Shown here one piece after another: positions 1 through 45,840 of a DNA stretch of 64,000 nt; within the stretch, counting starts at the first letter, position 1, and the number at the start of each line of letters is the position of its first letter. Under the pieces are notes generated by a model. That model saw nothing but the letters and a program-made list of their open reading frames with translations, had not been told where the DNA came from and searched no databases. The position numbers were made by a program, and so were the translations under genes. Source of the DNA: Candidatus Heimdallarchaeota archaeon (GTDB lineage: Archaea > Asgardarchaeota > Heimdallarchaeia > Heimdallarchaeales > Heimdallarchaeaceae); contig DXJF01000011.1 of the NCBI GenBank assembly GCA_019057375.1, forward strand, positions 81,583 to 145,582. The letters are read 5' to 3'.

Positions 1-1322
1 CCCAACCAGATCGCCCCCCTACCTGAGACTCTTGCGGAGTCCAAATGGGTATCGGGACCCGGTTTAGCCCCGTCCATTTTCTGAGCCCAACAACTCGATG
101 AGTAAGCTGTTACGCTTTTTTTAACGGATAGCTGCCTCTAAGCTTACCGCCTCATTGTCTTAGTCGTTGGACGTCATTCTGTTTAACATTTAACCGGGAT
201 TTAGGGCCCTTAACCCATTGTAGGGTTGTTCCCCTTTCGGCCATATCCCTTGCGGATACGCGCCCGTCTGTCGCCTTCTACAGCGCTTGCAAGTTCGGAG
301 TTGGAAGGGAGGGTGAGGATTTCACTCCCCAGAACCTCCCGTCCGTAGCTCTACCTCACAAGCCGCCTTCAGCGACGCTATCCTGTGGTGATACTTCGGG
401 GGGAACCAGCTATCAGCAGTTTAGATTGGTCTTTTGCCACTATCCCCAACTCAGAGGAATGAATTGCATATCAATAACCCTTCAGGCCTCCACGCTCCTT
501 TCGAAGCGCTTCACCTTGGTCAGGGATAGATCAACTGCTTTCGGGTCTTACACCTGTGACTTCACGCCCTTATCGGACGTCGCGCCTTGCCGAAGCTGCG
601 CGCTGGTCGCTTTCGCTACGCCACCGTATTAACTTAGGCTTGCCACAGACATAAACTCCTCGGCCCGTGTTTCAAGACGGAACGGATAACTCTGGTCCTC
701 TCAGCTCGTACTACCACCTCACGATGGGTTCCTTCACCGAGACTCTACCCTTTCAAGCCATCCACGTCTGTTACCATGTAGTTTCAGGGACTTTTCACTC
801 TCGTATTTCGAATACTTTTCAACTTTCACTCACGTTACTAGTGCGCTATCGGTCTAGGGGAGTATTTAGGCTTGGGAGTTAGTCCTCCCATATTTGCGCG
901 ACAAATCCAAGCCACGCTAGTCTTGATACTACTAAGCCGAGCGCTTACGTTTACGGGGTTATTACCCTCTATGACGCCCCTTTCCAGGGGCCTTCAACTT
1001 CACGCTTTCGGTCTATGTTGTAGTCAAAACACCACATCTACCTTAATTTTTCAAAAAAGGAATTCGGTTTGGCCTGTTCCGGTTTTACTCGCCGTTACTA
1101 CCGGAATCACAATTGTTTTCTTTTCCTGCAGGTACTTGAATGTTTTGGTTCCCTGCGTTCCCCGCCATTACTGGCTGTTACAGTTTATTAGACTGTAACC
1201 GGAAATCCGATTCGGGAATCTGTGGATCGTAGACTGTCTGCGTCTTCCCACAGCGTTTCGCCGCTTACCGCGCCCTTCATCGGCTCCCTAGCCGAGTCAT
1301 CCACTACATGGCGTATGCATAG
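1..1322 (-). rRNA. rrl: 23S rRNA, 5' portion (continues beyond window start)
   Basis: Minus strand near 1310 reads GTGGATGACTCGGCTAGGGAGCCGATGAAGGGCG, the conserved 23S 5' region; GC-rich conserved LSU motifs throughout; 5' end approximate. Confidence 0.96.
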
Positions 1323-1644
1323 TGTAGGTTACTCTAGAAATCAGTTTTCGCCTTCTAGGAGAGTTATTGTCAGCTAACTAAACGTAATCGTTTAGGGATT
1401 ATCATAAATCCTGGAGGTGATAAACACGCAAACTATTGCGCGAGTAGGGTTTTTATTCCCTTTGTTTATAATTGTTCCGTTTTTGAACATAATCGCAATC
1501 TTTCTGATCGCGTTCCTACCCGTTAAGGTAAGATACAACAGATAAGCAAACATCGATAGATATTCACATTATCAACAAAATGAGCTATAGATAAAAAGGT
1601 ATTGTTTTAAGATAAAATTTCCTTAAAGCTACGGAAGATTTTTA

Positions 1645-3198: not shown

Positions 3199-3273
3199 TT
3201 AAGCTGGTGACCAAAATGGTGGAGTTATGCTTTCGTCGCCATCTTCAGGATCGTATTTCGGTTCATTCATCAT
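3199..3273 (-). CDS. Micro-peptide A, MMNEPKYDPEDGDESITPPFWSPA (YDP...PPxWxP family)
   Basis: Hand-translated; matches peptides at 15088, 17020, 45299, 45600, 45772; SD-like GAGATGA upstream; alternative in-frame ATG at 3279. Confidence 0.85.
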   Translation of the reverse strand: MMNEPKYDPEDGDESITPPFWSPA

Positions 3274-3309
3274 GTTCATCTCAGGAAAGGTTATCATTTT
3301 AGTTAGACA

Positions 3310-3603: not shown

Positions 3604-6600
3604 TTAATTTATGTTTTCAACATATTTTATTATTTCATGACTTATCATGTAACTTATTCTTTTTCCAATACCATCAATTAAATTTGACATAAAAATATCT
3701 CCTGCGTATGTATCCTCCATAATCTCAAGAATCAAAGATGGATTTATATGGTGGAAGATATCCAATAGAATTTTTGGATTGTAATTGCTTTCTACATGGG
3801 TTGCTGCATATGTTAACCAAAGAACATCCTCTTTATTTCTGATTAATTGCACTAAATTTGGTATTAATTTTATAGCTATATCTTCTTCTAAGCCTGCAAT
3901 TTCTAGAAAAGGATAAACTACCGTATCAAATGAATAATCATAATTTAGTATAATTGATTCAGAATTAATTTTATCTATTAAAAATACAGTTAGATCTTTG
4001 TTAAATACACATAATCCTTTGATAAAATGAAACAAATCAACAATATTCCATTTATCTTCTAGCTTATTTTTAATAAAATCAGAATCAAGTATAGAATTTA
4101 TATCTAAAAGAAGATCGTTTTTTGCAATATATCTCAGAGAATACAAAGTAACACCAATGTCATGAAGATCTTTTTCCGTTTTTATTTTTTCATAAAGAAC
4201 ATCCTTATCTAGTAATACAAGTATTCGAGAAATTAAATCCTCAGAAAAAAGTGATGCACTACTCAAAAGACATTTAACACCAATTAAATCTTCAGAACAA
4301 TTAACTTTTTCAACTAAATTCTTAATATTTTTCTTGTTCAATACAAGATTAATTGAGTCTGTTTCACCTAAAAAATCTAAAATTATCTCTATCTGAGACA
4401 AGTTTGTTTCAGAGTCAATTCTTTTCGTAAAATAATCAAAAATTCTTGTTTTTTTGATATTAAACTGTTTGTTTTTTCCTAAGTTATAATAAAAAAGTTT
4501 ATTCATGAAATTAATAAGATGAATAAAATCTTCATGCTCTATTGTTTTACTCAAAATGATAGATTTTCCAATGATTCCAGAGGCTATCTTAGCTAGATTA
4601 TAATTTTGGTTGATTATAGTACTAAGAAAAGAAAACGAACTATCAGGCAATATCCAGTTTATTCTCTTCAAAATTTTTCTGATTTTAATTTTCCTAAGAA
4701 ATATTCTTATATTTTTATTACTCATTTGCCAAAATAAAGATTCAATACTTTGTACAAACATCTTGCAATCTATAACATTTTTGAATTTCTTAATAAGAAT
4801 ATTCAGATATTCTTTTTGGTACTTCGAAATGATGAATCTTTCATAAAGCATTGTTATAAAGTATAAATCTTCTTCGTACTTCATGCTTTCTAATAAATAT
4901 TTCATAATCTCTCCGTCGCTAAGAAGATAATCAACAATACCTTTGGTATTATCATTCATAAGAAATTTCAAAATTTTAATTTTATAATCCTCATTTGAGT
5001 GAAGTATGTACTCTTTGAAGAGATTAAAATCATCCTCGTATCTTTCACCAAGTAAAAGTCGCAAATTATAGGAAATGCAATTTGAGAATTTTATTGCAGA
5101 ATAATAGAGCTGTGCAACAGATTGATGTGACAGAATATAAGTAATCTGAAAATAAGCACTACCAATGTGATGAATGTTGTGTTTTTCGTATAAATTCCAA
5201 ACGTTTGATATATGGACTATTTCTACTGGATAGTATAGCAAATGTTCAATTATTTCATGCTTTTCTAACAAATATTCAAGGATATGATTATGAATTTTTA
5301 AATTCTGAATTAGATAATTTTTCTCAACCCTAATATTATGTTTGGAGAATACAGATAAAATAAATACACAATCATAAAATTGATCAAGCTCTTTATGATT
5401 AAAAACTTCATCTAGACTTTCAAGTATATATTGATAGATTTCCTCTTCATGAACTTCACATTTTTCATGATCTATTGAGTTTAGAGCAAATTCTAACAAC
5501 CACAAATCTTGCCAATACTTACTCAATTGAATTTGAAGTTTAGAAAAGTTATTATGATTTCGCAAATTAGAATCATTCGGTATATGTTTTTTTACGATTT
5601 CTTCAGCAATTTCTTCAGCTGTAATTTTTAATATGGGATTTCTCTCAAATTCAGAATTTCCTCTTATTTTGAATTCAATAAGTCTTGTTCCTGCAAGTAC
5701 CAAGCTTTTTGAAGACGCATTATGTAATTTACATATGTTATTAAAAGAATTGAGATTTTCATGAATATCATCAAGAATTATTAATGGTTCTTTTCTATCA
5801 TATAGAAGTATTTTGCAAAGTTCTTCTATTTTTTCACGATTTTCTTCCTTAAAACTCAGATAATATACTGGTCGTTTTTTTGCCAATATAAAACCCACGT
5901 GCTTCAAGAATACAGATTTTCCTGATGCTGAATCACCTAAAACTATAGTTCTTTTCTGTTTTTCCAATTCTTGAATGCATTCTTTAAGTACTCTTCTTTC
6001 AACTATTTTTCCTTCCTCAAAATTTGACCAAACAGGTATTTTTTGTTTACTTTCAAAAACCTGATCTTTCCTTAAAACATGCTCAATCGAGTTTTTTTCT
6101 ATTTCCAAATATATGTATGAACTAGATCCCTTCTCTCTCAAGTAATCATGTATAATATGTTTCTTAATTGTCGTTCCTTTACAATAATTTTTAGAATTAA
6201 TGTGACCAAGAAAGTATCTTATATTGCTTTTGTTTGTTTGATATCCATATTGTTCAGCAATTTCTATTATATGATCTTCTAGTGAATCAAGTTGGATACA
6301 TTTGAATTCTACTTTTTTAATGAAATCTGATAGAATATCAACTGTTATTTTACTACCAAACATTTCAGAATAATTTTCCGGAATAATTTTACATATATCC
6401 GATAGTTCTTCTTTTGGTATTATAATTTTTGAATCTGAAAAAAACTCATCTTTGATAGGTATATTACTATAAAAAACGAAAGTCTCAACTCCTTTTGAAC
6501 GAACCAATAATTGAAGCAAAGGACCTCTTTTTCCTGAATAGAAAAGTTGTTTTGGAGTCCAGCTACTGCTGCTTTGGATACTTTTAGCTTCCCCAATGCA

Positions 6601-6741
6601 GATTTTTCTTCCGTTAGTATAAAAAGAACTGTCTTCATAGTTTTTTTCTATAGAAAATTCATCATATTTGTTTGATAGAATATGGTATAGTGCAGTTAAA
6701 ATTTGGTAATTAAATTTATGTCCAAGATGCTCATCTATCAT
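3604..6741 (-). CDS. Putative nuclease-STAND NTPase with C-terminal helical repeats (defence candidate)
   Basis: N-terminal GHKFNYQ...EKNYED...GEAK (PD-(D/E)xK, Cap4/DUF4297-like); Walker A GDSASGKS; Walker B LIILDD; ~40 aa helical repeats at C-terminus. Confidence 0.6.
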   Translation of the reverse strand: MIDEHLGHKFNYQILTALYHILSNKYDEFSIEKNYEDSSFYTNGRKICIGEAKSIQSSSSWTPKQLFYSGKRGPLLQLLVRSKGVETFVFYSNIPIKDEFFSDSKIIIPKEELSDICKIIPENYSEMFGSKITVDILSDFIKKVEFKCIQLDSLEDHIIEIAEQYGYQTNKSNIRYFLGHINSKNYCKGTTIKKHIIHDYLREKGSSSYIYLEIEKNSIEHVLRKDQVFESKQKIPVWSNFEEGKIVERRVLKECIQELEKQKRTIVLGDSASGKSVFLKHVGFILAKKRPVYYLSFKEENREKIEELCKILLYDRKEPLIILDDIHENLNSFNNICKLHNASSKSLVLAGTRLIEFKIRGNSEFERNPILKITAEEIAEEIVKKHIPNDSNLRNHNNFSKLQIQLSKYWQDLWLLEFALNSIDHEKCEVHEEEIYQYILESLDEVFNHKELDQFYDCVFILSVFSKHNIRVEKNYLIQNLKIHNHILEYLLEKHEIIEHLLYYPVEIVHISNVWNLYEKHNIHHIGSAYFQITYILSHQSVAQLYYSAIKFSNCISYNLRLLLGERYEDDFNLFKEYILHSNEDYKIKILKFLMNDNTKGIVDYLLSDGEIMKYLLESMKYEEDLYFITMLYERFIISKYQKEYLNILIKKFKNVIDCKMFVQSIESLFWQMSNKNIRIFLRKIKIRKILKRINWILPDSSFSFLSTIINQNYNLAKIASGIIGKSIILSKTIEHEDFIHLINFMNKLFYYNLGKNKQFNIKKTRIFDYFTKRIDSETNLSQIEIILDFLGETDSINLVLNKKNIKNLVEKVNCSEDLIGVKCLLSSASLFSEDLISRILVLLDKDVLYEKIKTEKDLHDIGVTLYSLRYIAKNDLLLDINSILDSDFIKNKLEDKWNIVDLFHFIKGLCVFNKDLTVFLIDKINSESIILNYDYSFDTVVYPFLEIAGLEEDIAIKLIPNLVQLIRNKEDVLWLTYAATHVESNYNPKILLDIFHHINPSLILEIMEDTYAGDIFMSNLIDGIGKRISYMISHEIIKYVENIN

Positions 6742-7204: not shown

Positions 7205-7250
7205 AGCTTTGAATTAAAAATTCCTTGGGGTTTAACAATGCAAGTTTATA

Positions 7251-7562
7251 TTAAATATCAATGTAACAGTTCCTGATAAGAAAATGCTTGGTAGTTGAGG
7301 TAATATGGATTCCAAAGGAAGTGCTAGACGTAATATTGTAGTTCTCAATCAAGTAAGGATCTTCATATGTACCTGAACCTGGAAAAGCTAAGAAATCTTC
7401 ATCTGAAGTAATCTCTATAGGGTCATGGTTTGTAAGATAATTAGTGTTATTAGATTGGTTAGCTTTAGTTTCTCCGTCAACAGTAATTGTTACAGAAACT
7501 AAAAAACAAAGTAGGATAAGTGTTCTTCTACATCTAGGGGACATAGTATTCTCTAGATTCAC
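7251..7562 (-). pseudogene. Truncated secreted right-handed parallel beta-helix (NosD-like) protein
   Basis: Signal-like hydrophobic segment then HDPIEITSDEDF...GSGTYEDPYLIENYNI, a typical N-terminus of such proteins; stops after 103 aa, ~45 nt from the duplicated 16S end. Confidence 0.65.
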
Positions 7563-7655: not shown

Positions 7656-10600
7656 ATGAGAAACAGAATTTGGCTTTGTAAAATCCTCTTATTGGCTAGC
7701 ATACTTTGTGGAGGCTTTCTTCTAATTAACAGTGAGGTTGAAGCTGAACCAGGATTAAGAGATGTGACAACCAATGCTTTATTACCTTATGATATTAATT
7801 TTGAATTTAACTTCTCTGGCAGTGAAGAAGTTTATAATTTGCATTCAAATCAAATTGAATTAGGAGAACTAAATAAACTCACACTTTCTTTCCGAGTAAA
7901 CGGTATGAGCGGTTCTCCAGGATTAAAAATAGTGTTCATTTTCATGACTATTAAAGTTGGATTTGTTGTTGACCGAATTTTTAATGATGATACTTTACAC
8001 AATTTAACTGAGACTTTTCTTTTTCCTCACAACTATTCAGGTAGTATGGATATTACTGTCATTTGTAGTGGTAGTTCAACTTCTACAAGAAATGGATTTC
8101 TTACCATATTTAATAGCACTAAAATAGAACAAATGAATATTCCCACAATATCAGAGGATTCTTTTTCTCTTCCAACTTCCCAGGATTGGGTGATGTTCAA
8201 AGGTAATATATATTCTTGGAATAGAGGAGGAATTACATCTGCTTTTTACAATTACGATGAAATGGCACTAGTAAGTCTTAACATATCCTTCTCTTCAAAT
8301 TATTTTCAGTCAATAGAAAATGTAGTTGAAATTTCTTTAAATGGTAATTTTGTTGCAGAAGATTATTTCATTGAAGATTTAAGTAATAATATTGATATTC
8401 AATTTCAACCTGAAATAGGTTTGAATCTCTTATCATTGAATTTCTCTGTTTCTTATTCCTTTAATCCAATTTATATTTCAAATATCTCTCTTTTTGGCTC
8501 TCTTTTTAATTATGAATCTAGCAGTTCTACTTCAGATTCATTTAGTTGGGAAAGTGGTTTTTTTTCCTACTCTTTTGATTTATCTACGTTAAAACCCCCT
8601 GGGTACTATTCAGAACAAGTTCTTCACTTAACAATCAATTACCAATGTTTCGGAATGAAAATCTCTTCAGGAATAAACTATTTTCTAAAAATAGGGACAT
8701 CTATTCTCGAGGAAGGAACCATAAGCTATCTCGAGCAAATGTATGAGAATAATAGTTTAAAGATCGAGACCTTTACTACGGAATATCACAACCCTCTTAC
8801 GTTTAAAATTTTCGGCACTTCGAATGGGGTGGGAGGACTTACTATTTTAAATTCAAGTACGATTGAAATATCTCACATAGGTGAGCTAACAAAACAACCT
8901 TTGAGTAGAACCATAGCAGATGAAAGAAGTGTTAATGGTCCTTCTCTTGCTGTTTCGCTTAGTTTTTATGATGTCTTTCAAACTTATAGGATTGCAGCTC
9001 CTGTACAATTAGCTGTTAATTTTAATACAGTTTCTACTTATGAACATCCCTTTGATTTACTTACAGTAACAGTCAAAATTGATGGTGTAAGAGTAATATC
9101 AAAAAATGTTCATATTCTCGGTTTTGCAAATTTTAGTAAAGAATTTTCCTTAGAACATGGGTATCACGAAGTTAGAATAAATTTCCAATTTTCTGGCATT
9201 AATACTCCTCTCACAGTAGAACAATTGAAGTACCAACTAGCTTTACAAATTGAAGAAGAAATTACTGTCTCAACAGCACTCTCTTATGCTCGTCAATCAA
9301 CATTCTATCTTCTAGCCTTTTACGCCCTCCTCTATGTCCTTCTAGATGTTAAAGAAATAAATCGAGAGAGAATCAAGGAAAAAGAAAGTTCTATTCGTGA
9401 AGATTCTATCGAAGATGCAAATGATGACTCTAGGAATTTATTACGTACGGCTCTCATGGTTGTTGTAAATATATCTATTAATTTGACTCCTTCTGTTTTC
9501 TTCTTGTTGCATGGAATTAATTACTGGTTTATTTTACCCTTAAGCTTCTTTGTAGCTTTACATTTCAGTATCAAAATTCTCTTTTCGAATTTTTCGAAAG
9601 ATGCAATAGTTGGGTTTTGGAACAAAACAAGAGACTTCTTTAGAGATATCTATTCCCTCTCAGGCTTTCTTAATAAAGTTACAAGATCATTCGGAAAACT
9701 CTCTTTTAGAAGCTTAACTAGATTATTGGTCTTCGCTATAGCTTTTCTGAGCTTTGGCTTATTGTTTTTCTTGGCAGATAATATTCCTTCAAATGCTGTC
9801 AAGGAAGTCTGGATTGTCTATGCTCTTTTGCTAGTTTGTATTGTTATATCCTCTCTTACTTTATTCTACACCCTTCATTTAGTTAGAGACATGGCTTTTA
9901 TAGAGGACAATCTGAAAAGAATAAAGAGGTTAGGTTATGCTTCCATCACACTTGTTGCTGGTTTTCTATTTGTTCTTATCAGCATGTTAGGCACTAAACT
10001 CAGTCTTTCAAGCATCTGGGGTTTCCTTTCTCCAATCCTCCTTTTTGGTATTTTTCGTACAACAACTAAACTAGGAAAGATTTCTGCCAAAGAAGAAAAG
10101 CTCTCCTTTGACGATTTTCTGGATAAAGGAATGTTCTTCACTGATAAGAAGGAGATGCGAAAAGCTGTCAGTTTTGGTATCAATACTCGCTCTACTTGGG
10201 AAAAGAAAGGGTATGAACTCCAGAAACATCAGATAAAAGGTGTTATCGCTTACGATTACAACCCTGGAGATAAGATCAATCTCTATGAACTGGCTGAGAA
10301 GATTAAACTCCCCTTTAAGAAAACAGAGGAACTTGTTCAGGAGATAGAAAAAGAAGTTCCTAGATTAGGAAAATATGACCCTCAATCTAAAATCTATACC
10401 AAGAGCAAAGAGAATATTATAGAAGCTCAGGAAATTCAGGAAAAAATTGTTCCAGATAAATATGAAAATGAAGAAAAGAATGTAGAGATGAGTAAAATAC
10501 CAACAAAGAATATTTCTACAAAAGAAAGATTTCAGAAGCTGCTTGAAGAGGTAGTAGGAGAGAGTGACGAGGAGAAGAGGAGAACTCTAGAATATGTGAA

Positions 10601-12599
10601 TCATTTGACAGCTAAAGAAGCGGAAGTATATCAAAAATTCTTGAAAAAGGGATTGGGAGACCAAGATATAGTCATAACTAATTCTGACAGAGAATTTTTA
10701 CAAAGAGCATGGAAGAAGATACATGTTCAAGAAGATATTTTTCAAAGAAACAGTTCTAGCAATTTGCTGAGGGAATATTATGATAAGATATCAGATGCTC
10801 ACAACGGTTTTGATGATGTTGTGTTTGAGATAAAAAAAGAATTATTCAAAATATCCTTTTTGGAGTATAAAGTAGGTGATCGTGCAACTTACTATCCTTG
10901 GGAGTATATTCCTAAATTTGGATATCATTTGCTACGTAGAGAATTAAATGAAAAACAACTTCTTAAGTACATAGAAAAAAACCCAATAGTTGAATCTCTT
11001 TTTTCATCTCAATCAAATTTGGGGAAAAAGAAAGTTCCTTTAATCATTAGAAAGCTATACTACGACAGAAACAGGCAGTATCATATCATTGGAAATGATT
11101 GGTTAGTCAAATTCATGAATGGAGACTTTCAGAATGCTCTTTCTCATTTAGTCACTAAAGGTCTACTAACAAACAAACAGAAAAAGAGAATTACTGTGGG
11201 ATTATCGGAATTTAACCAATTGGTAGGTTTAGCTCAGAATGGACACACTTTTCGAGTTTTCGATAATACGAAAAAAATACAATTAGAATCTTGTGCAGAA
11301 ATAACATTAGGTGGAAAACAAATTATCTTATACCACGATTTCTTTTTACCTAAGTTTGAGATTAATCAAGAAAAAATCAGCATAAGTCTTCAAGGTTTTA
11401 ATAAGATAACAACTTCTAAACACAATCAATTGAACCTGCTAATTAAGAAAGAATACTTCCTCAGAGACGATCAAGAGGACAAGATTCTTGTTCTCTATGC
11501 TAAACTTAAAAGAGAATTTCTTTTAGATTTGATAAAATCTAAATTAATGGACCATTTACAGGTTTTATATGATAAAAGATATATTTCTGGACTTGATACA
11601 ATTACATCATCAGATTTTATTCCGTCTATTGATAAATTAAAAAAGCAACCCACAAGACAGAGGGGTATAGTTTGGTTTTATGATGATATTCAAGTTTCAC
11701 CTATTGATTTTCTTACTAACAAAAAATTCAAAGAAATTCTACAGGAAAAAGATGAAGAATTGCTATTTTCTAAATTAGCTTCATTACTAAGTGACACTGA
11801 AACTTTTTTTGAAGACGAAGGTAGAAAGCAATTTTCTATAGCTTATGAAGCCTATAAGAATGGACATTTCGATTTCTTTCTTTTTAATCAAAGTGTTAAT
11901 GAGATCTATAAACCTCCTACTTACTCTTTTAGGCAAGGTAATATTCCTAAAACTGGTGTTATATTAGTTGACCACAACAATAGAATAATCAACTTAATTT
12001 CCCCCTCAAAAGCTGTTAGTATTCTACTAGAAGAGGGTGATATATTGCTTAACTTTCCTTTTAGATGGGATTCACACTATGGTTATTTTGCATTCACCCA
12101 AAAAGGAAATAGAATGAGTAATGTTGCCAAGTCTTGGTATGATTGGTTGATTAAGGCAAATCTTCCCATTCCTTCAGGTTCCAGTGGTAGAATTCCTGAT
12201 ATATCAGTAATTGCAATGTTACTAGAGTGGTGGACAAGGCAAGAAAATTTTGTTATCAATAGGATTCTTTCAAACCAAGTTTTTATTGAGAGTTGTAGGA
12301 AACACAAAATTGTGGTTGATAAAGATTCTACAATGGTTATTGATTCAAAAAAGAATTCTTACAAACTTGCACGAGTTTCTGTTACTCAAACAGGAAATAT
12401 TAGACATAAAGAAAATTGGAAATATTACGCGTTTTATAATGACAAAATACGCACAGTTATTGATGTTCTTAAAGCTGCAATTTTTGATTTAGTTTTACAG
12501 AAAGGCAATATTTCTTCCGCTCAAATACCTGATTTGAGAAATTGGTTGAAGATAAATTGGTTGGAAGAATTTGAAAAACTGAAAGAATATTTCTTTTGA
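7656..12599 (+). CDS. 1647 aa multi-domain membrane protein of unknown function
   Basis: Signal peptide, ~520 aa beta-rich extracellular region, multiple TM helices (~aa 545-810), winged-helix-like segment, long soluble C-terminal region. Confidence 0.75.
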   Translation: MRNRIWLCKILLLASILCGGFLLINSEVEAEPGLRDVTTNALLPYDINFEFNFSGSEEVYNLHSNQIELGELNKLTLSFRVNGMSGSPGLKIVFIFMTIKVGFVVDRIFNDDTLHNLTETFLFPHNYSGSMDITVICSGSSTSTRNGFLTIFNSTKIEQMNIPTISEDSFSLPTSQDWVMFKGNIYSWNRGGITSAFYNYDEMALVSLNISFSSNYFQSIENVVEISLNGNFVAEDYFIEDLSNNIDIQFQPEIGLNLLSLNFSVSYSFNPIYISNISLFGSLFNYESSSSTSDSFSWESGFFSYSFDLSTLKPPGYYSEQVLHLTINYQCFGMKISSGINYFLKIGTSILEEGTISYLEQMYENNSLKIETFTTEYHNPLTFKIFGTSNGVGGLTILNSSTIEISHIGELTKQPLSRTIADERSVNGPSLAVSLSFYDVFQTYRIAAPVQLAVNFNTVSTYEHPFDLLTVTVKIDGVRVISKNVHILGFANFSKEFSLEHGYHEVRINFQFSGINTPLTVEQLKYQLALQIEEEITVSTALSYARQSTFYLLAFYALLYVLLDVKEINRERIKEKESSIREDSIEDANDDSRNLLRTALMVVVNISINLTPSVFFLLHGINYWFILPLSFFVALHFSIKILFSNFSKDAIVGFWNKTRDFFRDIYSLSGFLNKVTRSFGKLSFRSLTRLLVFAIAFLSFGLLFFLADNIPSNAVKEVWIVYALLLVCIVISSLTLFYTLHLVRDMAFIEDNLKRIKRLGYASITLVAGFLFVLISMLGTKLSLSSIWGFLSPILLFGIFRTTTKLGKISAKEEKLSFDDFLDKGMFFTDKKEMRKAVSFGINTRSTWEKKGYELQKHQIKGVIAYDYNPGDKINLYELAEKIKLPFKKTEELVQEIEKEVPRLGKYDPQSKIYTKSKENIIEAQEIQEKIVPDKYENEEKNVEMSKIPTKNISTKERFQKLLEEVVGESDEEKRRTLEYVNHLTAKEAEVYQKFLKKGLGDQDIVITNSDREFLQRAWKKIHVQEDIFQRNSSSNLLREYYDKISDAHNGFDDVVFEIKKELFKISFLEYKVGDRATYYPWEYIPKFGYHLLRRELNEKQLLKYIEKNPIVESLFSSQSNLGKKKVPLIIRKLYYDRNRQYHIIGNDWLVKFMNGDFQNALSHLVTKGLLTNKQKKRITVGLSEFNQLVGLAQNGHTFRVFDNTKKIQLESCAEITLGGKQIILYHDFFLPKFEINQEKISISLQGFNKITTSKHNQLNLLIKKEYFLRDDQEDKILVLYAKLKREFLLDLIKSKLMDHLQVLYDKRYISGLDTITSSDFIPSIDKLKKQPTRQRGIVWFYDDIQVSPIDFLTNKKFKEILQEKDEELLFSKLASLLSDTETFFEDEGRKQFSIAYEAYKNGHFDFFLFNQSVNEIYKPPTYSFRQGNIPKTGVILVDHNNRIINLISPSKAVSILLEEGDILLNFPFRWDSHYGYFAFTQKGNRMSNVAKSWYDWLIKANLPIPSGSSGRIPDISVIAMLLEWWTRQENFVINRILSNQVFIESCRKHKIVVDKDSTMVIDSKKNSYKLARVSVTQTGNIRHKENWKYYAFYNDKIRTVIDVLKAAIFDLVLQKGNISSAQIPDLRNWLKINWLEEFEKLKEYFF

Positions 12600-12770: not shown

Positions 12771-14281
<1,511 letters not shown>

Positions 14282-14735: not shown

Positions 14736-15087
14736 ATATACTTAGAAGAAGTTCGATATATATACTTTGCTCTTTTTTCTGTTATACATCTTCCAGAGTA
14801 TTCGTAGATTAGAGGCTTAAAGTCGGTAAAATAACTCTGAAAGTAATTGACACAATTTTTCTTTGGAAATTAATGATGATACTATAATATCAACTATGAG
14901 AAATAGAGGGTGGTGATAAGGAAAGGATAGTTTAGTTTTTTTTTAGCAAACGAGGAATCCCTATATTTCTTTTTTCCTCTGTTCTGATAGAAATTCTAGT
15001 TTAAGAGAAATTTAGCACAAAATTTCTTGTGAGGATATACGATCTTGTAAAACATTAACTATAACCTAGCTTAAAGAGATGAACCTA

Positions 15088-15146
15088 ATGAGATATTATG
15101 ACCAACAGATGATGACGACTGGTTACCCTCAGAATGGTTTCCTTAA
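15088..15146 (+). pseudogene. Micro-peptide B, MRYYD[P]TDDDDWLPSEWFP with a 1-nt deletion
   Basis: GACCAACAG versus GACCCAACAG in peptide C; restoring one C gives the family sequence ending CCT TAA. Confidence 0.75.
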
Positions 15147-15284
15147 ACTATTCTAATCTTACTTTTTTTATTCAGATAACCAATTTTAAGCGAAGATGTT
15201 TTATACCTTTTTCTCTTAAATTGTACAGAGTAAAACTATCAATTGACATCAAACCTTTGAGGAAAGGTATTGTGGGGATAAAGT

Positions 15285-16961
15285 ATGCTAGATACTGAAG
15301 AGTTTCGAGAAAGAAAAGAAAGAATTTTTCAGAATATTGGAAGTCTTAATACTTTATCTGATCTTAGTGACCATGTCTTGGATTTAGAACTCGTTTGTGC
15401 AAACGAAAGATCTTTGGAATTAGCGAACATTCTGAAGAAGACTATAATTGTAGCGAAAGAAATTGAGAATAATAACCTTTTGTATAAGTCATATAGACTG
15501 TATTTTCAGCAAATATTTTCATATGTTCAGAGATTGGATGAGGCTGAAGAAATAGTTAATTGCATGCAAACAATTGCAGAATCAAGTAATAACATAGAAC
15601 ATGAATCTCTTGTTTATTTTTCAAAAGCTCTTCTAATTAGAATTCATGGACTAATTGAAAAATCTGATGAACTTACAATTAAGGCAATGAGAAAAATAGA
15701 AAAAGGAAAGAAAATTTATCCCGATACATATTACCGTATTCTTTTTACTTATAATATGTTTATGTGGTATCGTGATAATGATTTTCCAGATGTTTTTTCT
15801 AATGTAGAAAAATGTGTTTCCTATTGGAAAGATACGTATCACACTTTACCTATGATTACAGGGATATTCAGATTACTTAGATTGTACATATTTTCAGGTA
15901 ATAGTGAAAAATTTAATAATTTAATGCAATGGATATTTGAGAAGGAAAGAATACAAGATAATTTAATTGATTATCATTTCACATTACTATATTCCTTCAT
16001 TGGTCGTATCCAAGCAATTCGATTGAATATCGACAAGGCTATAGATTTTTTATCTGAAGCATATCATAGAGTAATTTCTTCAAAATCTGAAGATATAATG
16101 ATGTACGAATATATTGAAATTCAGAAGTTATTGTGTAGAAGCTATGCATTTAAAGGAGAATTTCAAAAATCTTATCAAATCCTTATTGAGTTTCTAAATT
16201 TCGTTGAAAGTGATTTTGTTAAGCAGAATTATCAAACTTCAATGGTAAAAAGACTGTATTTTGGTGTATATTATACCCTGTTGTTTATTTTTGCTCAACT
16301 TGATGTTAATATTGATAATATAGCAGATACTCAGCTAAAGAGAATACACAATTATACAAAGAATCTTCTTGAAAAATCAAGAATTTCAGAGGATTTACTA
16401 ATAAGCAATTCTTTAGATGACAAACAATTGGATAAAATTAAAATAGAAAAAGATAAGAGACCTGTTGAGTTTGATTTATCTCTGTATCAACAGTTAAATT
16501 CTCTTAAGACACAAGCTGCTTCTGAAAATACAGTTAGTAACATAGAGTATCTGAGAGGTTATGTTTACAACCCCTTATATGCTGACATAATTTTGGGAAA
16601 GATTCATCTTTCCATTGGTAATTTTAGAGAATTTAAGAGTATAGTTAAACAAATGGAAAATAAGGAAAAAGAAGCTGATACTCCTGTTTTGATTCTTTGG
16701 ATAAAACTATATAGGTTGCTGTTTGAATACTTAGAAGATCCTGGAAATAAAGTGATATTATCAGAGTTTAGAAAATTGGAATCTTACTGCAAGAAAAATA
16801 ATTTCATCAAGATGTCAGAAGAAATTAACTTATACTTCAAACTAATAACTTCAACAAAAACAATCAATAACTTAACTCAAAAATTCCAACAAACAGCTTT
16901 TACTGATATTTATAATAAACAGTCAAAAAGAATGGTTGTTGAATATCTTGATAGTAAATAA
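15285..16961 (+). CDS. TPR-like all-helical protein 1 (558 aa), paralog of 45980..47554
   Basis: Amphipathic helix pairs; collinear similarity to the 524 aa protein; no catalytic or HTH motif recognised. Confidence 0.75.
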   Translation: MLDTEEFRERKERIFQNIGSLNTLSDLSDHVLDLELVCANERSLELANILKKTIIVAKEIENNNLLYKSYRLYFQQIFSYVQRLDEAEEIVNCMQTIAESSNNIEHESLVYFSKALLIRIHGLIEKSDELTIKAMRKIEKGKKIYPDTYYRILFTYNMFMWYRDNDFPDVFSNVEKCVSYWKDTYHTLPMITGIFRLLRLYIFSGNSEKFNNLMQWIFEKERIQDNLIDYHFTLLYSFIGRIQAIRLNIDKAIDFLSEAYHRVISSKSEDIMMYEYIEIQKLLCRSYAFKGEFQKSYQILIEFLNFVESDFVKQNYQTSMVKRLYFGVYYTLLFIFAQLDVNIDNIADTQLKRIHNYTKNLLEKSRISEDLLISNSLDDKQLDKIKIEKDKRPVEFDLSLYQQLNSLKTQAASENTVSNIEYLRGYVYNPLYADIILGKIHLSIGNFREFKSIVKQMENKEKEADTPVLILWIKLYRLLFEYLEDPGNKVILSEFRKLESYCKKNNFIKMSEEINLYFKLITSTKTINNLTQKFQQTAFTDIYNKQSKRMVVEYLDSK

Positions 16962-17019
16962 AACTCTTTTATTGAAATAAAAAAAACAAAAGAAAAATTC
17001 CAAAATGGATTCTTTTTGC

Positions 17020-17082
17020 TTAAGGGTACCATTCTGGGGGGAGGAAATCATCGTCGTCTGTTGGGTCGTAATATCTCATCAT
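17020..17082 (-). CDS. Micro-peptide C, MMRYYDPTDDDDFLPPEWYP
   Basis: Hand-translated; family motif; SD-like GAGATGA upstream; alternative in-frame ATG at 17088. Confidence 0.85.
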   Translation of the reverse strand: MMRYYDPTDDDDFLPPEWYP

Positions 17083-17267
17083 GTTCATCTCGGATAGTTT
17101 TACTGATATTTACCTCAAGAAAAGATAATAAACAAATCAGAAATTTCGTGTCAGAATCTTTTTGAAAAAGTATGATTTTTCACACTTTTTTTGGTATTTT
17201 TATATCCTAAGGTAGTATCCCCCTTGATTATCTCTTGTACTTTGAGTATTCTTAGAGAGGAAATACT

Positions 17268-20096
17268 ATGACTAAAAAGAAGAAATCTCAGTTTCGTTAT
17301 AGTTCCAATAAACAACAGCAAACTAGAACTAGAAGGATTATTAGAGCAATTCTTCCCTGGATCTGTGTAATTGTTCTTGGTTTTATTTCCTTTATATTTC
17401 TCTTTCCAGAGTTGGTGAAATTGTTTCCATCCGATTTTTTAATTTCTATAGCAGCATTCAGTGAAAATATAGCTCTTTTCTTGAAAGGTTTCTTTATTAC
17501 TCTCTTTACTAATTTAGTTTTTATTTCCTCGATTTTAGCTCTTCTTATATTTTTCATTGCGGTTAAATTATTACCTTTCTACAACATTGATGATACAGAA
17601 TTTTATACTCAGAAGAAATTGTTTTTACCCTTTTTTAGAAAGATTGGCGTAGTAATGGTTTCTTCCTCAACAGGAAACGGCAACAGTAATTACAGCAACA
17701 GTAGCTATGCTAATAAAATTCATGAATCTTTCATCAACTGTCTTTCATTGAGAACAAAAGATAGAATGTTAGCCATTTACAAACATACTACTGGAGTAAG
17801 CATATTTTTTCCAATTATTTCTAAAGGGTGGATAAAGAACAGAACTAATCAACGTTTAAATCGAGATATTATTTTCATTTCTAATTCGATTGATAGTCAT
17901 TATGATTGCAGAATCAAAACTTTGAATGGTGACCAGACTAAAGATCTTGTTCAAGCTCTGAATCAAATGAAAGCTAAGAGTAAAATTGAATCCTCTTCTG
18001 AGTTGATTACTCAATTTAATGTGACTGATCAAATGTATAACATCTTTGTTAAGAATGAAATAAAGGATACTTGTTTTATCATTAAAACAGATAAGAAAAG
18101 GAGAGAATCTAAGAAAATTGTTTTTGATCTTCTTCTTTTATCTGAAGACAATGCTACAGAATCATTTATTTTCAATGCCTCTGGTTTGTCTAAGAAGAAA
18201 AGAAAAGTTATAACACCTAACAAGAACTTTCATAGTCTAGTTTTCTCCCCAATTCGTAAGAAAGAATCTGTATTGATTGACGATATCGCTTCTTTAGTTC
18301 ATGTGCCTATGGCTTATAGAGGTGGTTCTTTACCAATTAGTGCTAAAAGAGATGGTCTAAGTTCTTCTATACTGAAGGATGAAGATAATGTTATTGTTGT
18401 AGGTAGAGCAATAGATGAAAATGATATGGGAAAGGAGATTTTTCTAAATGTGAAAGACCTCTTACTTAATGTTGAAATCCTAGGATCTATCGGCAGGGGG
18501 AAGACAAAACTAGTTTCATCAATTGTCGGTCAGCTATTTGAGAAGAAAATAAGTACACTAGTTTTTGACATTAAAGGTGAGTATGCTAGAACATTCACAG
18601 AAGACCCAAGAATCGAAATTTATACAATTGGAAAACCTCATCCTCTTTGCATAAATATTTTCGAAACAGTTGATGAAGATGATATCCATAATACTTTACT
18701 GATTATAGAGGAAATGTTACTTTCTTCAAATCAAGAGTTTACACCTGCTATGAAGAATCTATTTGAAAGTGCTCTCTTACTTACTCATAAAGCACCCAAA
18801 CGTAATTTACAAGTTTTTGTTGAAAACATTTTCAAGGTTTCAAGACAGCTGCAAGCTCATTCAAACATCACTTATTTACAACAAACTATTGATGCCGTTC
18901 TTAACAGATTAAATTTCATATTTAATCCAATAAATTTTGAAATCTTAGGTGCTATGAGAACAACTTTAGATCTTTCCCTTCTAGAAGGGGGTAGAAGTAT
19001 CATTTTGGATTTAAGCCAGTTCCAGAGAAGAGCGGCAAGACCTTCTGATATCTTTTTGGTATGCAATTTGGTACTTAAAATGCTCTATAGAAAAGCTTCT
19101 GCAAGAGAGATGACTAACAAATTACGATATGTAGTTGTTCTTGAAGAAGCCATCAATATTATTCCTAATTTCTATCATTCCGAAAGCTCTGCATCTTTGA
19201 TTACATCTGAAAACAATTTCTTACTTGGAAGATCTCTCGGAATCGGGCACATTACTATTACTCAGATGTGGCAAAGTGTTAGTAATATAGTTCATGGTAA
19301 CTCTGCTACAAAATTTGTATTCAGGTCAAGTGAAAAAACAGATCTCATAGTCAAAGCTTTAAATCTAGAAGAGGACGAGATCACTAAAATACAGAGTTTA
19401 CCAACACAACATTGTTTCTTATTCTTTGAAGGTTCAGATTCAGCTATACAAATTCGAACACTAAACTTAGCGACAGATCCAATCAGCTTTACTGAATATC
19501 AAACGAAAATGTTGAAAAAATATGGTAGAAGCGTTTTTCCTCTGCTATTTAATAACTTCATAGATATGCGAACTTCTATCTATCAACAGAGTAACGCGAA
19601 TATCGTTGGAAAAAACAAGAAATTTACTAGTAAAAGACAAGATTTAGCTCAAAACAAGTTAGATAATTTTCTGAAAGAAGAAGAATTGGAAATTGATTCT
19701 AATAAGAAAATGATTATTGAGAAGGACACTTTGGATTTCATTACTTCAGCAGGATTATTACCTGAAAACTTAATCTGCGAACAATTGTGTTTTCAGGAGG
19801 ATAGCGAGAAAAACTGCTTGAAGTATAATATGGGAGCAAAAGTTGTGAAATCTACTATACTCAATGAATGTTCCACTGAAGAGATTTCTATTATGCTTAC
19901 TGATGTGAGAGAACTTCATTCCTTGGTTTCCGCAATATCTACAAAGAGAAACCTTGAGTTCGATGAAAATCTAGTCTTTTGTACAGTAAAAACTTTGGTT
20001 GTGGACTTTATTTCAGAGAATATCCTAACTCCAAACGAAGCTTATAGTATTCTTACAAGATTCTCTCTTAGGATTAAAGAGACAATAAATACTTAA
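17268..20096 (+). CDS. Membrane-anchored HerA/FtsK/VirB4-like (DUF87-type) ATPase
   Basis: N-terminal TM helices; Walker A GSIGRGKT; VFDIKGEY; Walker B VVVLEEA; GRSLGIG...ITQ. Confidence 0.8.
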   Translation: MTKKKKSQFRYSSNKQQQTRTRRIIRAILPWICVIVLGFISFIFLFPELVKLFPSDFLISIAAFSENIALFLKGFFITLFTNLVFISSILALLIFFIAVKLLPFYNIDDTEFYTQKKLFLPFFRKIGVVMVSSSTGNGNSNYSNSSYANKIHESFINCLSLRTKDRMLAIYKHTTGVSIFFPIISKGWIKNRTNQRLNRDIIFISNSIDSHYDCRIKTLNGDQTKDLVQALNQMKAKSKIESSSELITQFNVTDQMYNIFVKNEIKDTCFIIKTDKKRRESKKIVFDLLLLSEDNATESFIFNASGLSKKKRKVITPNKNFHSLVFSPIRKKESVLIDDIASLVHVPMAYRGGSLPISAKRDGLSSSILKDEDNVIVVGRAIDENDMGKEIFLNVKDLLLNVEILGSIGRGKTKLVSSIVGQLFEKKISTLVFDIKGEYARTFTEDPRIEIYTIGKPHPLCINIFETVDEDDIHNTLLIIEEMLLSSNQEFTPAMKNLFESALLLTHKAPKRNLQVFVENIFKVSRQLQAHSNITYLQQTIDAVLNRLNFIFNPINFEILGAMRTTLDLSLLEGGRSIILDLSQFQRRAARPSDIFLVCNLVLKMLYRKASAREMTNKLRYVVVLEEAINIIPNFYHSESSASLITSENNFLLGRSLGIGHITITQMWQSVSNIVHGNSATKFVFRSSEKTDLIVKALNLEEDEITKIQSLPTQHCFLFFEGSDSAIQIRTLNLATDPISFTEYQTKMLKKYGRSVFPLLFNNFIDMRTSIYQQSNANIVGKNKKFTSKRQDLAQNKLDNFLKEEELEIDSNKKMIIEKDTLDFITSAGLLPENLICEQLCFQEDSEKNCLKYNMGAKVVKSTILNECSTEEISIMLTDVRELHSLVSAISTKRNLEFDENLVFCTVKTLVVDFISENILTPNEAYSILTRFSLRIKETINT

Positions 20097-43492: not shown

Positions 43493-43816
43493 TTAGTTCT
43501 CTCCCCATATTTTGAATAATTGTTTCAAAGAATGAGCAAGGATGTTATTATCTTTGAATTGATATATTAAGATTCTACCAAATCTCTTTTCCTTTATCAA
43601 CCCTACATCTGTTAGATATTTTAGATGCCCTTTTACTGCAGAATGATTGAGATTTATACTTCGTGATATTGCAGAAATGTTTAATTCCCCTAATTCAGCT
43701 AATAACTTTAGAATTCTTACCCTTCCTCTTGAGGAGAAAACATCTTCTAATGGTATTTTAAGCTGTATCTCTCTATCGTTTTCCTTTGTCATTGTTTTTC
43801 CCCTATTTTTCAGCAT
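43493..43816 (-). CDS. ArsR-like winged-HTH regulator
   Basis: RVRILKLL...ISAISRSINLNHSAVKGHLKYLTDVGLI. Confidence 0.85.
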   Translation of the reverse strand: MLKNRGKTMTKENDREIQLKIPLEDVFSSRGRVRILKLLAELGELNISAISRSINLNHSAVKGHLKYLTDVGLIKEKRFGRILIYQFKDNNILAHSLKQLFKIWGEN

Positions 43817-45026
43817 ATTCTACTGTTTTCTTTTGATTTTCGATTGACTTCATCAGAAAGAGTTCTATGGTTTCTACTGATATGTCTGGTATACTAATTA
43901 GTGTAGTTTTACCACGCATTCCTTCCCCTGAGATTTTTGTACTGATTACATCTTGTTTTGATAATTCTTTCAGATATGACCAGATTTGGGTATGCCGTCT
44001 AGGTTCCTCTTCATATTCCTCACAAACTAATCTATAAGAGCTAATTGCATCATTTGTTGAAATATATGCGTTTTTTGTGTGTTTTAGTTTTCTTATAATC
44101 GCAAGCAGTATTAATTTCTGATGCAGGGTTAATGTTAAAATTACTTCTCTTCTTATTTCTGGGTGAATCAAAGCTTTTGCTTTTCTTACATGATCAGGAT
44201 AAACTATAGGAGAACTCTCATCGTCAGCGCATTGGCCTGCCCCCCAAAGTATTTCTATTGCATATCTTGCATCTCCTGATTTACTTGATATATCCGCAAT
44301 AAGTTCAACGGAGTCTTCGGTTATGGTACTATCATAAAAGGCTAATTCTGATCGGGATTTAATAATGTCTTTTAAATCAGTTTCAGAGTATCGATCCAAG
44401 GAAATGTGATTAGATTGAAAACTGCTTTGAGTACTCGCATCCAGTTGATGGATAAAATTCAGGTTTTTTGCTATAAAAATGTATGAAATCCATTGTTTAG
44501 CAGTCATTTCACTAATTCTAAGTAATGTGTAAAGGAAATCTGTACCTACTCTAGATATAAGATAATCAATCTCATCTAAAACTAACAAAACCTTTGGGGA
44601 ATAAAAATCAAGCAATCTAATGAGAAGTGATTGTAATTCTTCAAAGGAGTAACCTCTTGGAGGAATTGCCTTATTTAGTTTTCTTGCAAGAGTGCTAATA
44701 ATTAGATAAGGGCTTTTGTAAATTCTACAATTAATGTAGACAAGCAAAAAATTCTTGTTTTTATCTATATTTTCCAAAAGCTGACCAAACCGTTTTGCGA
44801 GAGTTGTTTTTCCAGATCCTGTTGGTCCAGTTATACAAATTTTTCTCAATGGTTCATCTTGTTCTTCGAAAATTGTTTTGAAGTATTTAGCTAAAGTCCT
44901 GAGTTCTTCCTCCCTGTGTGGAAGATATGGAGGGGTATATGTAACAGACAAACAACCAATGTTTTTGAATACAGTTGGTTTTTTGATTAGCGAATTAAAA
45001 TATTCTTCATCTGATGAGTGCATCAT
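43803..45026 (-). CDS. cdc6: Orc1/Cdc6 replication initiator
   Basis: LPHREEE, GPTGSGKT, LVLDEID, GDARYAI, C-terminal winged helix. Confidence 0.95.
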   Translation of the reverse strand: MMHSSDEEYFNSLIKKPTVFKNIGCLSVTYTPPYLPHREEELRTLAKYFKTIFEEQDEPLRKICITGPTGSGKTTLAKRFGQLLENIDKNKNFLLVYINCRIYKSPYLIISTLARKLNKAIPPRGYSFEELQSLLIRLLDFYSPKVLLVLDEIDYLISRVGTDFLYTLLRISEMTAKQWISYIFIAKNLNFIHQLDASTQSSFQSNHISLDRYSETDLKDIIKSRSELAFYDSTITEDSVELIADISSKSGDARYAIEILWGAGQCADDESSPIVYPDHVRKAKALIHPEIRREVILTLTLHQKLILLAIIRKLKHTKNAYISTNDAISSYRLVCEEYEEEPRRHTQIWSYLKELSKQDVISTKISGEGMRGKTTLISIPDISVETIELFLMKSIENQKKTVEYAEK

Positions 45027-45298: not shown

Positions 45299-45370
45299 AT
45301 GATGTACGAACTAAAATACGACCCTGATGAGGGAGATGGAGATATTATGCCTCCTGTATGGCTTCCTTAG
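45299..45370 (+). CDS. Micro-peptide D, MMYELKYDPDEGDGDIMPPVWLP
   Basis: Hand-translated; family motif; GAGTTGA SD-like site. Confidence 0.88.
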   Translation: MMYELKYDPDEGDGDIMPPVWLP

Positions 45371-45599
45371 TTTAAGAAAGCTATTTTTTCTCATTTTTTA
45401 CATAAAAATCAATGAGTATTTTCCTAGTTTATCTTCATAAAATACACTATAGAGTTGTGGCTTGAAAGAAGAGATGTTGGAGTAATAGAAATCCTTGGGA
45501 GCGGTTTGGCTTTAAAGAGAGATTGGAACTCTTTTCTTCTTGGGTTTATGTATGTTCTTTCCTGTAATATTACAGTGCCTTCCAAAGAGCTGAAATTTG

Positions 45600-45668
45600 A
45601 TGTATGAACAAAAATATGACCCTGACGAAGGAGACGATGGAATTTTACCACCTGCTTGGTTGCCATAA
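45600..45668 (+). CDS. Micro-peptide E, MYEQKYDPDEGDDGILPPAWLP
   Basis: Hand-translated; differs from D mostly at synonymous positions; GAGCTGA SD-like site. Confidence 0.88.
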   Translation: MYEQKYDPDEGDDGILPPAWLP

Positions 45669-45771: not shown

Positions 45772-45840
45772 ATGATGTATAAACTAAAATATGATCCAGG
45801 CAATGATGATGATTTACCCCCTGGTTGGTTCCCAAACTAA
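45772..45840 (+). CDS. Micro-peptide F, MMYKLKYDPGNDDDLPPGWFPN
   Basis: Hand-translated; family motif; upstream TAGAGTAACCTTTCCAAGAGTTGAAAC identical to D. Confidence 0.88.
   Translation: MMYKLKYDPGNDDDLPPGWFPN

Follow-up and report, generated by a model that had tools for sequence, protein, structure and literature searches.

Modules that pair a peptide with a tetratricopeptide repeat (TPR) receptor have so far been a hallmark of Bacillota and their phages, and we know of no established case of peptide-based communication or recognition in archaea. Signal-reader cassettes that are polymorphic between close relatives and sit in conserved flanks are represented by comQXP of Bacillus, agr of Staphylococcus and comCD of Streptococcus. 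In the RRNPP(A) pairs (Rap-Phr, NprR-NprX, PlcR-PapR, Rgg-SHP, ComR-XIP, AimR-AimP), a small peptide gene adjoins, upstream, downstream or convergently, the gene for a cytoplasmic TPR protein. Their core has 5 or 9 TPRs, Rap-type receptors lack a DNA-binding domain, and some subfamilies have leaderless peptides whose export route is unknown (PMC12700828). Here we describe a cassette of mini-genes for short acidic peptides and a gene for a TPR-like helical protein, found at two loci in a window of 64,000 nucleotides (nt) from a Candidatus Heimdallarchaeota archaeon (assembly GCA_019057375.1, contig DXJF01000011.1, positions 81,583 to 145,582 of the forward strand). Our results suggest that these cassettes encode matched peptide-binder pairs of a kind not described in archaea. 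At about even chances, we read the cassette as a lineage-specific, fast-diversifying two-gene module of the Heimdallarchaeaceae in which each helical solenoid would bind its neighbouring peptide or peptides. Full-text searching of the literature found no description of this peptide/TPR family.

The first locus centres on a gene for a protein of 558 amino acids (aa). Its features, in window coordinates, are as follows.

15079-15146, plus strand: peptide gene B, RYYDPTDDDD subtype, upstream of the 558-aa gene on the same strand, frameshifted (coordinates allow for the shift)
15163-15169, plus strand: oligo-T run (T7), terminator-like, 17 nt past the stop of B
15285-16961, plus strand: open reading frame (ORF) for the 558-aa protein, an all-alpha TPR-like solenoid in its AlphaFold2 (AF2) model; single-copy, founder of the '558 clade'
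16979-16997, minus strand: oligo-T runs (T5 and T8) downstream of C, inside the 58-nt gap before the stop of the 558-aa gene
17020-17088, minus strand: peptide gene C, intact, convergent with the 558-aa gene, ORF MNMMRYYDPTDDDDFLPPEWYP
17089-17267, no strand assigned: intergenic promoter region of C, between C and a divergent HerA/DUF87-like gene

A first-pass annotation, made from the sequence alone, had placed the 558-aa gene between two related mini-ORFs, B upstream on its strand and C convergent downstream, and this bracketed arrangement was confirmed. B lies where it had been located; the peptide quoted for it, by comparison, is obtained only when one C is restored, as the ORF is frameshifted. 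The lesion is a 1-nt deletion at 15103/15104: restoring one C after GAC gives GACCAACA, compared with GACCCAACA in C, and without that repair the ORF gives MNLMRYYDQQMMTT... A second assembly record (ERZ6006181) has this deletion too, which makes B most likely a copy that broke not long ago; its position is orthologous to that of an intact upstream peptide in genome G021. The ORF of C lies 58 nt past the 558-aa stop codon on the opposite strand. In the closest relative the frame can start only at MM, which makes MM at 17082 the likely start of C as well, with a 20-aa product MMRYYDP... Over 22 codons B and C have six synonymous and four non-synonymous differences, and the third base differs in all four Asp codons. 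Both were thus retained as coding sequence, and recent gene conversion does not account for their likeness.

The second locus holds a paralogue of 524 aa and three peptide genes in a 950-nt gap adjoining an Orc1/Cdc6 gene; their KYDP subtype is as the first-pass annotation had described it. It is listed here with a further peptide gene of the window.

45299-45370, plus strand: peptide gene D, KYDP, xEGD class
45597-45668, plus strand: peptide gene E, KYDP, xEGD class
45772-45840, plus strand: peptide gene F, KYDP, closest to the 524-aa gene
45980-47554, plus strand: 524-aa TPR-like paralogue, of the expanded '524 clade'
3199-3297, minus strand: orphan peptide gene H, MNMMNEPKYDPEDGDES..., without a helical neighbour, downstream of a STAND NTPase gene

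The 558-aa protein and its 524-aa paralogue are only distantly related (24% identity over 263 aa, E 1e-8), and the genome has no others of their kind. With a profile made from the peptide copies we found eight family members in the 3.47 Mb assembly, all on the contig of the window and within 59 kb; the next-best match had E = 6, and nothing lay below it. Five of the eight flank the two helical genes and three are orphans, namely H and the genes I and G, which adjoin an inorganic pyrophosphatase gene 12.6 kb before the window. Two proteins near the orphans were considered as relatives of the helical family and rejected: the STAND NTPase beside H is not homologous to it (hhalign probability 0.1), and the 523-aa protein near I and G is an unrelated DUF4379 zinc-finger repeat protein.

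We collected 144 distinct peptide units from about 30 related genomes of the Heimdallarchaeaceae. Their products, of 18-24 aa and a net charge of about -4, share the form M(1-8 residues)-YDP-acidic/G-D stretch-(I/L/T)PPxWxP-end and have no match in Pfam or NCBIfam. The ORFs evolve as coding sequence. At the Pro codons of PPxWxP the amino acid is kept and the third base is near random (1.4-1.8 bits; 81 units); the units were selected by the protein motif, so that only this wobble figure carries weight. Start, stop and length are conserved in more than 140 distinct units. Oligo-T runs are an archaeal terminator signal, and a run of at least five T lies within 60 nt past the stop in 131 of the 144 units, compared with 21% of random 60-mers; in the window the distance from stop to T-run varies from 13 to 27 nt. 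TATA-like motifs cluster 46-53 nt upstream of the ATG; farther out, at about 75 nt, a conserved block reads TGTCA and then TTTCTTTCTT, and a Shine-Dalgarno-like GAGTGATG lies just upstream of the ATG. With a promoter-like block, a ribosome-binding-like site and a T-run terminator, each unit looks like a complete small transcription unit.

Within this genome the block, found about 45-80 nt upstream of D, E, F and H and of I and G (L001:6930-7010, 7215-7297), consists of TGTCA, a T/C-rich stretch and a TTTTAATAG-like TATA. It is conserved across genomes before 524-type peptide genes, and the sequence upstream of the B/C subtype differs. Such sharing suggests that the mini-genes are regulated together. 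A 6-bp palindrome present in some copies of genome G000 proved not to be general. Arrays mix decaying and intact copies: some units have lost the stop past PPxW.P and read on (e.g. ...PPLWHPLKCDNYD...; L064:1454-1510, 7874-7912, 12086-12148; L066:4252-4320), and several helical genes in arrays carry in-frame stops.

The codon pattern bears on whether the mini-ORFs might be non-coding DNA repeats, such as origin-recognition boxes, promoter repeats or remnants of mobile elements, that are open only by chance. D, E and F do adjoin an Orc1/Cdc6 gene and a conserved non-coding block does precede each unit, and yet the codon-position pattern, including that between B and C, is one of protein-level constraint, and more than 140 distinct units retain start, stop and length. 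Moreover, most cassettes in other genomes are far from cdc6, and no consensus RNA structure was found, with no pairs predicted in the conserved upstream block (RNAalifold, 30 units). We therefore consider the repeat explanation extremely improbable, and we rejected D, E and F as origin repeats on the codon pattern and the location of cassettes elsewhere.

Pairing of peptide and helical genes was counted in the same set of about 30 genomes, and the phyletic search covered 400 genomes of the phylum. We found that orthologues of the 558-type gene are single-copy, share 35-59% identity, and occur in 19 of the 24 genomes of genus g1 and both genomes of genus g2 within the family of the window's organism (f1), and in none of 370 other genomes of the phylum. 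The 524-type genes are confined to the same two genera, at 1-10 paralogues per genome, often in tandem arrays that include the 558-type gene. Positions of peptide genes relative to the helical genes are as follows.

558 clade: convergent downstream peptide at 16/17 loci; same-strand upstream peptide at 5/17
524 clade: convergent downstream peptide at 3/57 loci; same-strand upstream peptide at 58/59 (1-3 genes each)
Third helical clade (about 24% identical): convergent downstream peptide at 0/5 loci; same-strand upstream peptide at 0/4 (loci with enough upstream flank)

The sole exception in the 524 clade is an overlap artefact, as the peptide profile search lists a peptide there. The bracketed layout of the 558 locus recurs in G021, G032, G030 and G031. 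Matches to the peptide profile occur in 22 of the 24 g1 genomes and both g2 genomes, and in none of the 370 genomes of the phylum outside the family; the peptide-free genomes of the genus, G027 and G029, are exactly those without 558- or 524-clade genes, and copy numbers of peptide and helical genes correlate (Spearman 0.84). The peptides are thus physically and phyletically coupled to two helical clades. Recurrence of the pairing in other genomes had been named beforehand as a test of the proposal that these genes form a system, and the proposal stands, on recurrence at 16/17 and 58/59 loci in the two clades and on the single phyletic pattern of peptides and proteins. The third clade (547-587 aa) neighbours a helix-turn-helix (HTH) protein, a beta-CASP protein and UDP-glucose dehydrogenase, none of which gave a functional clue, and no relative of the helical family was found on viral contigs.

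These positions also bear on a reading in which the mini-ORFs are cis-acting leader peptides, with ribosome pausing at PPxWxP-stop controlling read-through of the oligo-T terminator into the helical gene. Pro-Pro, Trp and a terminal Pro are features of arrest peptides, known from TnaC and from polyproline stalling, and all three are conserved before the stop here; in 58 of 59 genes of the 524 clade, moreover, the peptide gene lies upstream on the same strand with an oligo-T tract between. The cis-upstream position of TnaC/SecM-type leaders is, however, confined to the 524 clade: at the 558 locus and in 16 of 17 orthologues the intact peptide gene is convergent. Tandem groups of two or three units have a promoter-like block for each unit, orphan units exist, the stop-to-T-run distance varies, and nothing would drive a sensor leader to co-diversify with the variable domain of the protein encoded downstream. 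We regard control by leader peptides as distinctly improbable.

The first-pass annotation had further proposed that each protein paralogue has its own peptide subtype, and the second test that it had named, whether peptide subtype follows protein clade, bore this out at both clade and subclade level. A [DE][DE]GD motif after YDP is found in none of 23 peptides of 558-type and in 60 of 91 of 524-type. For 14 of 20 peptides of 558-type the nearest peptide in another genome is also of 558-type (3.4 expected; 0/1000 shuffles). Along a tree of 81 helical proteins, the proximal peptide switches class 15 times (shuffled mean 41.8, minimum 34), and within the 524 clade alone it does so 12 times, compared with 32 after shuffling. 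Where one genome has tandem paralogues, these belong to different subclades, and each subclade has a peptide class to itself (EDGD, xEGD or EPGD). This indicates that the subtype signal is not simply species phylogeny.

Both helical proteins were modelled with AF2 as all-alpha, at a predicted local distance difference test score (pLDDT) of 88.7 for the 558-aa protein (29 helical elements) and 90.4 for the 524-aa protein. The two models, of 28-29 helical elements each, are uninterrupted solenoids of about 13-14 hairpins with repeat helices end to end. The Foldseek matches listed were all TPR or other helical-repeat scaffolds (TMq up to 0.53), none clearly best, and the nearest solved structures are TPR scaffolds that bind peptides; the matches include APC5 (TMq about 0.5), TSK/BRU1-histone tail, Ctr9, IFIT1, the degron receptor APPBP2, LGN, MalT domain III and the peptide-bound quorum sensor NprR (with NprX), whose TMt of 0.49-0.59 ranks no better than unrelated TPR proteins. 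As modelled, both proteins are TPR-like alpha-solenoids. By sequence, neither window protein has a Pfam or NCBIfam match, and so neither reaches the Pfam TPR threshold; a few relatives carry precomputed TPR_12, TPR_10 or MalT-like TPR matches. A profile search of the PDB gave only marginal matches to IFIT1 and designed TPRs and no RRNPP member, and a feature search of the ESM Atlas gave only unnamed or generic TPR clusters. Neither protein showed an HTH, enzyme or membrane domain. The 524 clade is mildly basic (median isoelectric point (pI) 8.6).

The likeness of these cassettes to RRNPP(A) pairs extends beyond the adjacency of peptide and TPR-protein genes to the many paralogous pairs per genome and the matching of peptide type to receptor clade, which is found here also; NprR is among the structural matches, and Rap-type members likewise have no DNA-binding domain. 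The differences are as clear. The host is an archaeon, whereas RRNPP(A) pairs come from Bacillota and their phages, and the solenoid is built of about 13-14 hairpins, not of 5 or 9 TPRs. The cassette proteins have neither an HTH nor a Rap-type N-terminal effector domain, the peptides are acidic and hydrophilic with no signal peptide or processing site, and there is no sequence similarity between the two sets of proteins. Judged on these defining features, with no effector domain, no export signal in the peptide and no sequence homology, the cassette does not appear to belong to RRNPP(A).

A second comparison is with eukaryotic TPR readers (kinesin light chain (KLC) with W-acidic motifs, APPBP2 with C-degrons, Hop/CHIP with EEVD, PEX5 with PTS1), in which a TPR superhelix is likewise combined with a short acidic and aromatic motif at or near a free C-terminus; APPBP2 and similar scaffolds are among the fold matches. 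The principle by which KLC recognizes short linear motifs has been described (PMC13078783, PMC6224480). Here, by contrast, the motif has a gene to itself instead of ending a larger protein, YDP...PPxWxP is unlike all of the motifs of these readers, and homology is limited to the generic TPR fold.

We compared DNA identity and synonymous divergence (dS) of the helical genes with those of flanking DNA or genes in close relatives. At the 558 locus the flanks are 87-92% identical on both sides, whereas the helical gene is 67% identical or alignable only over a short patch; dS is 0.38-0.46 for herA and about 1.8-2.1 for the helical gene. At the 524 locus cdc6 is 95-97% identical with dS of 0.13, whereas the helical gene is 97% or 81% identical or alignable only over its last 640 nt, with dS of 0.12 (G034), 0.84 (G028) or at saturation (G026, G033, G024). 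The ratio of non-synonymous to synonymous divergence stays at 0.16-0.29. The G034 orthologue of the 524-aa gene (97% identical; L033, G034:C38:6270-10841) is a mosaic, with dS of 0.035 over codons 1-300 and 0.415 over codons 401-524, suggesting that recombination had a breakpoint within it. The cassettes are therefore old, divergent alleles in young, conserved flanks, and the contrasts in divergence, the mosaic and the low ratio together show that the alleles are much older than the host genomes, have been exchanged or replaced by recombination, and are under purifying selection.

Within the 524 clade the variability is unevenly distributed along the protein, column identity being 0.23-0.45 over the first 300 or so residues and 0.62-0.79 over the near-constant residues 420-510 or thereabouts. 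A variable N-terminal part followed by a constant C-terminal module is the arrangement of proteins in which a specificity domain is linked to a shared domain for output or assembly, and the cassettes as a whole resemble pherotype or specificity loci. Like those loci they are polymorphic within conserved flanks, with alleles older than species splits; unlike them, they show neither membrane histidine kinases nor processed, exported peptides. A broader possibility is that the cassettes form an archaeal peptide recognition system with many long-lived specificities (pherotype-like, for kin or self/non-self discrimination, or for cell-cell signalling), carried by matched peptides and TPR readers. 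We think this unlikely.

Deep allelic divergence would also fit conflict loci of the bacteriocin/immunity type, which speaks for a reading in which the peptide does the work itself (as an exported signal, an antimicrobial, a metal-binding peptide, or something like a ribosomally synthesized and post-translationally modified peptide (RiPP)) and the TPR-like protein serves in its maturation, export, chaperoning or immunity. The tandem sets of peptide genes beside single protein genes, with a promoter-like block for every copy, the persistence of orphan peptide genes, and the ATP-binding cassette (ABC) ATPase and FtsX-type permease pair that adjoins arrays in several genomes are all consistent with this. 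However, the cassettes are not accompanied by any modifying enzyme, protease or leader motif, and they show none of the co-located modifying enzymes or leader-core organization of RiPP precursors. The peptides are short and acidic and have no Cys, Ser/Thr-rich cores or hydrophobic segments, no prenyl-synthase or cyclase fold is among the Foldseek matches listed, and the ABC/FtsX pair belongs to a conserved backbone that is present in G000 without adjoining cassettes. A peptide effector with a helical accessory protein thus also seems unlikely.

In our reading the cassette has two parts: self-contained mini-genes for cytoplasmic, strongly acidic peptides, and a gene for a TPR-like superhelix of about 525-560 aa. 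If the solenoids do bind their neighbouring peptides, the invariant YDP, the acidic/G-D stretch and the C-terminal PPxWxP end may form a docking frame, with the variable peptide residues setting specificity and the variable N-terminal repeats of the protein reading the peptide. In the 524 clade the constant C-terminal module might then relay the state of the protein to a common partner by protein-protein contact, in a Rap-like manner without a DNA-binding domain. The 558-aa gene with peptide C, and the decayed B, would be a single-copy, positionally fixed member with its own peptide subtype. The peptide would act either inside the producing cell or after leaving it.

Several observations weigh against binding by matched pairs. 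The related genomes are not independent, so the shuffle tests overstate the matching of subtype to clade, and linked genes that duplicate together would give the same tracking without physical interaction. Peptides can persist without an adjacent partner, as the three orphans among the eight genes demonstrate, and at the 558 locus itself B has lost its reading frame. Charge complementarity is not decisive: the peptides have a net charge of about -4, yet the 558 clade, at a median pI of 6.1, is not basic. Neither protein has a recognizable output domain in the Pfam search or the AF2 models, and the peptides have no signal sequence or hydrophobic segment. The predicted complex of the 558-aa protein (with alignment) and the 22-aa peptide C scored 0.03, for a peptide below the calibrated size, and this counts neither for nor against binding.

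The window as a whole has a G+C content of about 32%, and its rRNA genes are unlinked, with 23S at 1-1328 (minus strand) and 16S at 12771-14281 (minus strand). The 11 kb between them hold the STAND NTPase gene (1045 aa; 3604-6741, minus strand) and an ORF of 1647 aa (7656-12599, plus strand) without a Pfam match. Cassettes are found next to rRNA, HerA-like ATPase, ribosomal protein, cdc6, pyrophosphatase, phosphoenolpyruvate carboxykinase and ABC/FtsX genes. Divergent from peptide C lies the gene for a membrane-anchored HerA/DUF87-like ATPase (942 aa; 17268-20096, plus strand), which has a weak TrwB/VirD4-type match and is followed by genes for ribosomal proteins L1 and L10 in an order conserved across the genus. 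An orthologue (51% identical) adjoins 524-type arrays in G037 and G031. A functional tie to this ATPase was rejected, since orthologues are also found in the peptide-free genomes G027 and G029 and in genera without the peptide/TPR system, and its adjacency to the cassette therefore looks positional.

The Orc1/Cdc6 gene at the second locus (43803-45026, minus strand) is 99% identical in protein and 95-97% in DNA (dS 0.13) to those of six other species-level genomes, and herA, 25 kb away, has dS of about 0.4 to the same six. This contrast could reflect either uneven divergence along the chromosome or recent exchange of the cdc6 region. Just before the window, a cluster of unusual genes (L001:8285-17259; C12:69884-78858) encodes the DUF4379 zinc-finger repeat protein (523 aa), a Cas12f/TnpB-like protein (633 aa), a SIR2-TPR protein (819 aa) and a 905-aa protein that ends in a RING finger. 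The ABC ATPase and FtsX-type permease pair directly adjoins cassettes at L065:7388-10067, L069:15257-17933 and L067:9975-12651, and in G000 it lies at C12:59867-62477. The conserved backbone there comprises FtsX, ABC, a 270-aa protein, a 176-aa coiled-coil protein, phosphoenolpyruvate carboxykinase and pyrophosphatase, with cassettes inserted at varying points. As a candidate peptide exporter the pair was set aside as a weak lead, given its place in that backbone and its presence in G000 without adjoining cassettes.

The Heimdallarchaeaceae are close archaeal relatives of eukaryotes. In these Heimdall-group Asgard archaea we thus find an unannotated family of mini-genes, more than 140 of them distinct, that is strictly coupled to an expanded and equally unannotated TPR-like family; with fewer than 30 codons each, the mini-genes escaped gene callers. 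The cassettes carry the signature of specificity loci: old alleles in young flanks, a variable and a constant domain, and a peptide class matched to the subclade of the protein. Should binding not be confirmed, the family would still show that conserved micro-ORFs have been overlooked in Asgard genomes. Should it be confirmed, about 75 natural cognate pairs would be at hand for studying peptide specificity in TPR grooves, together with a way to test for recognition between or within cells in the lineage nearest eukaryotes. And if the cassettes did prove to be a recognition system, they would be the first known case of peptide signalling in archaea and a free-standing precursor of how eukaryotic TPR proteins read short linear motifs.

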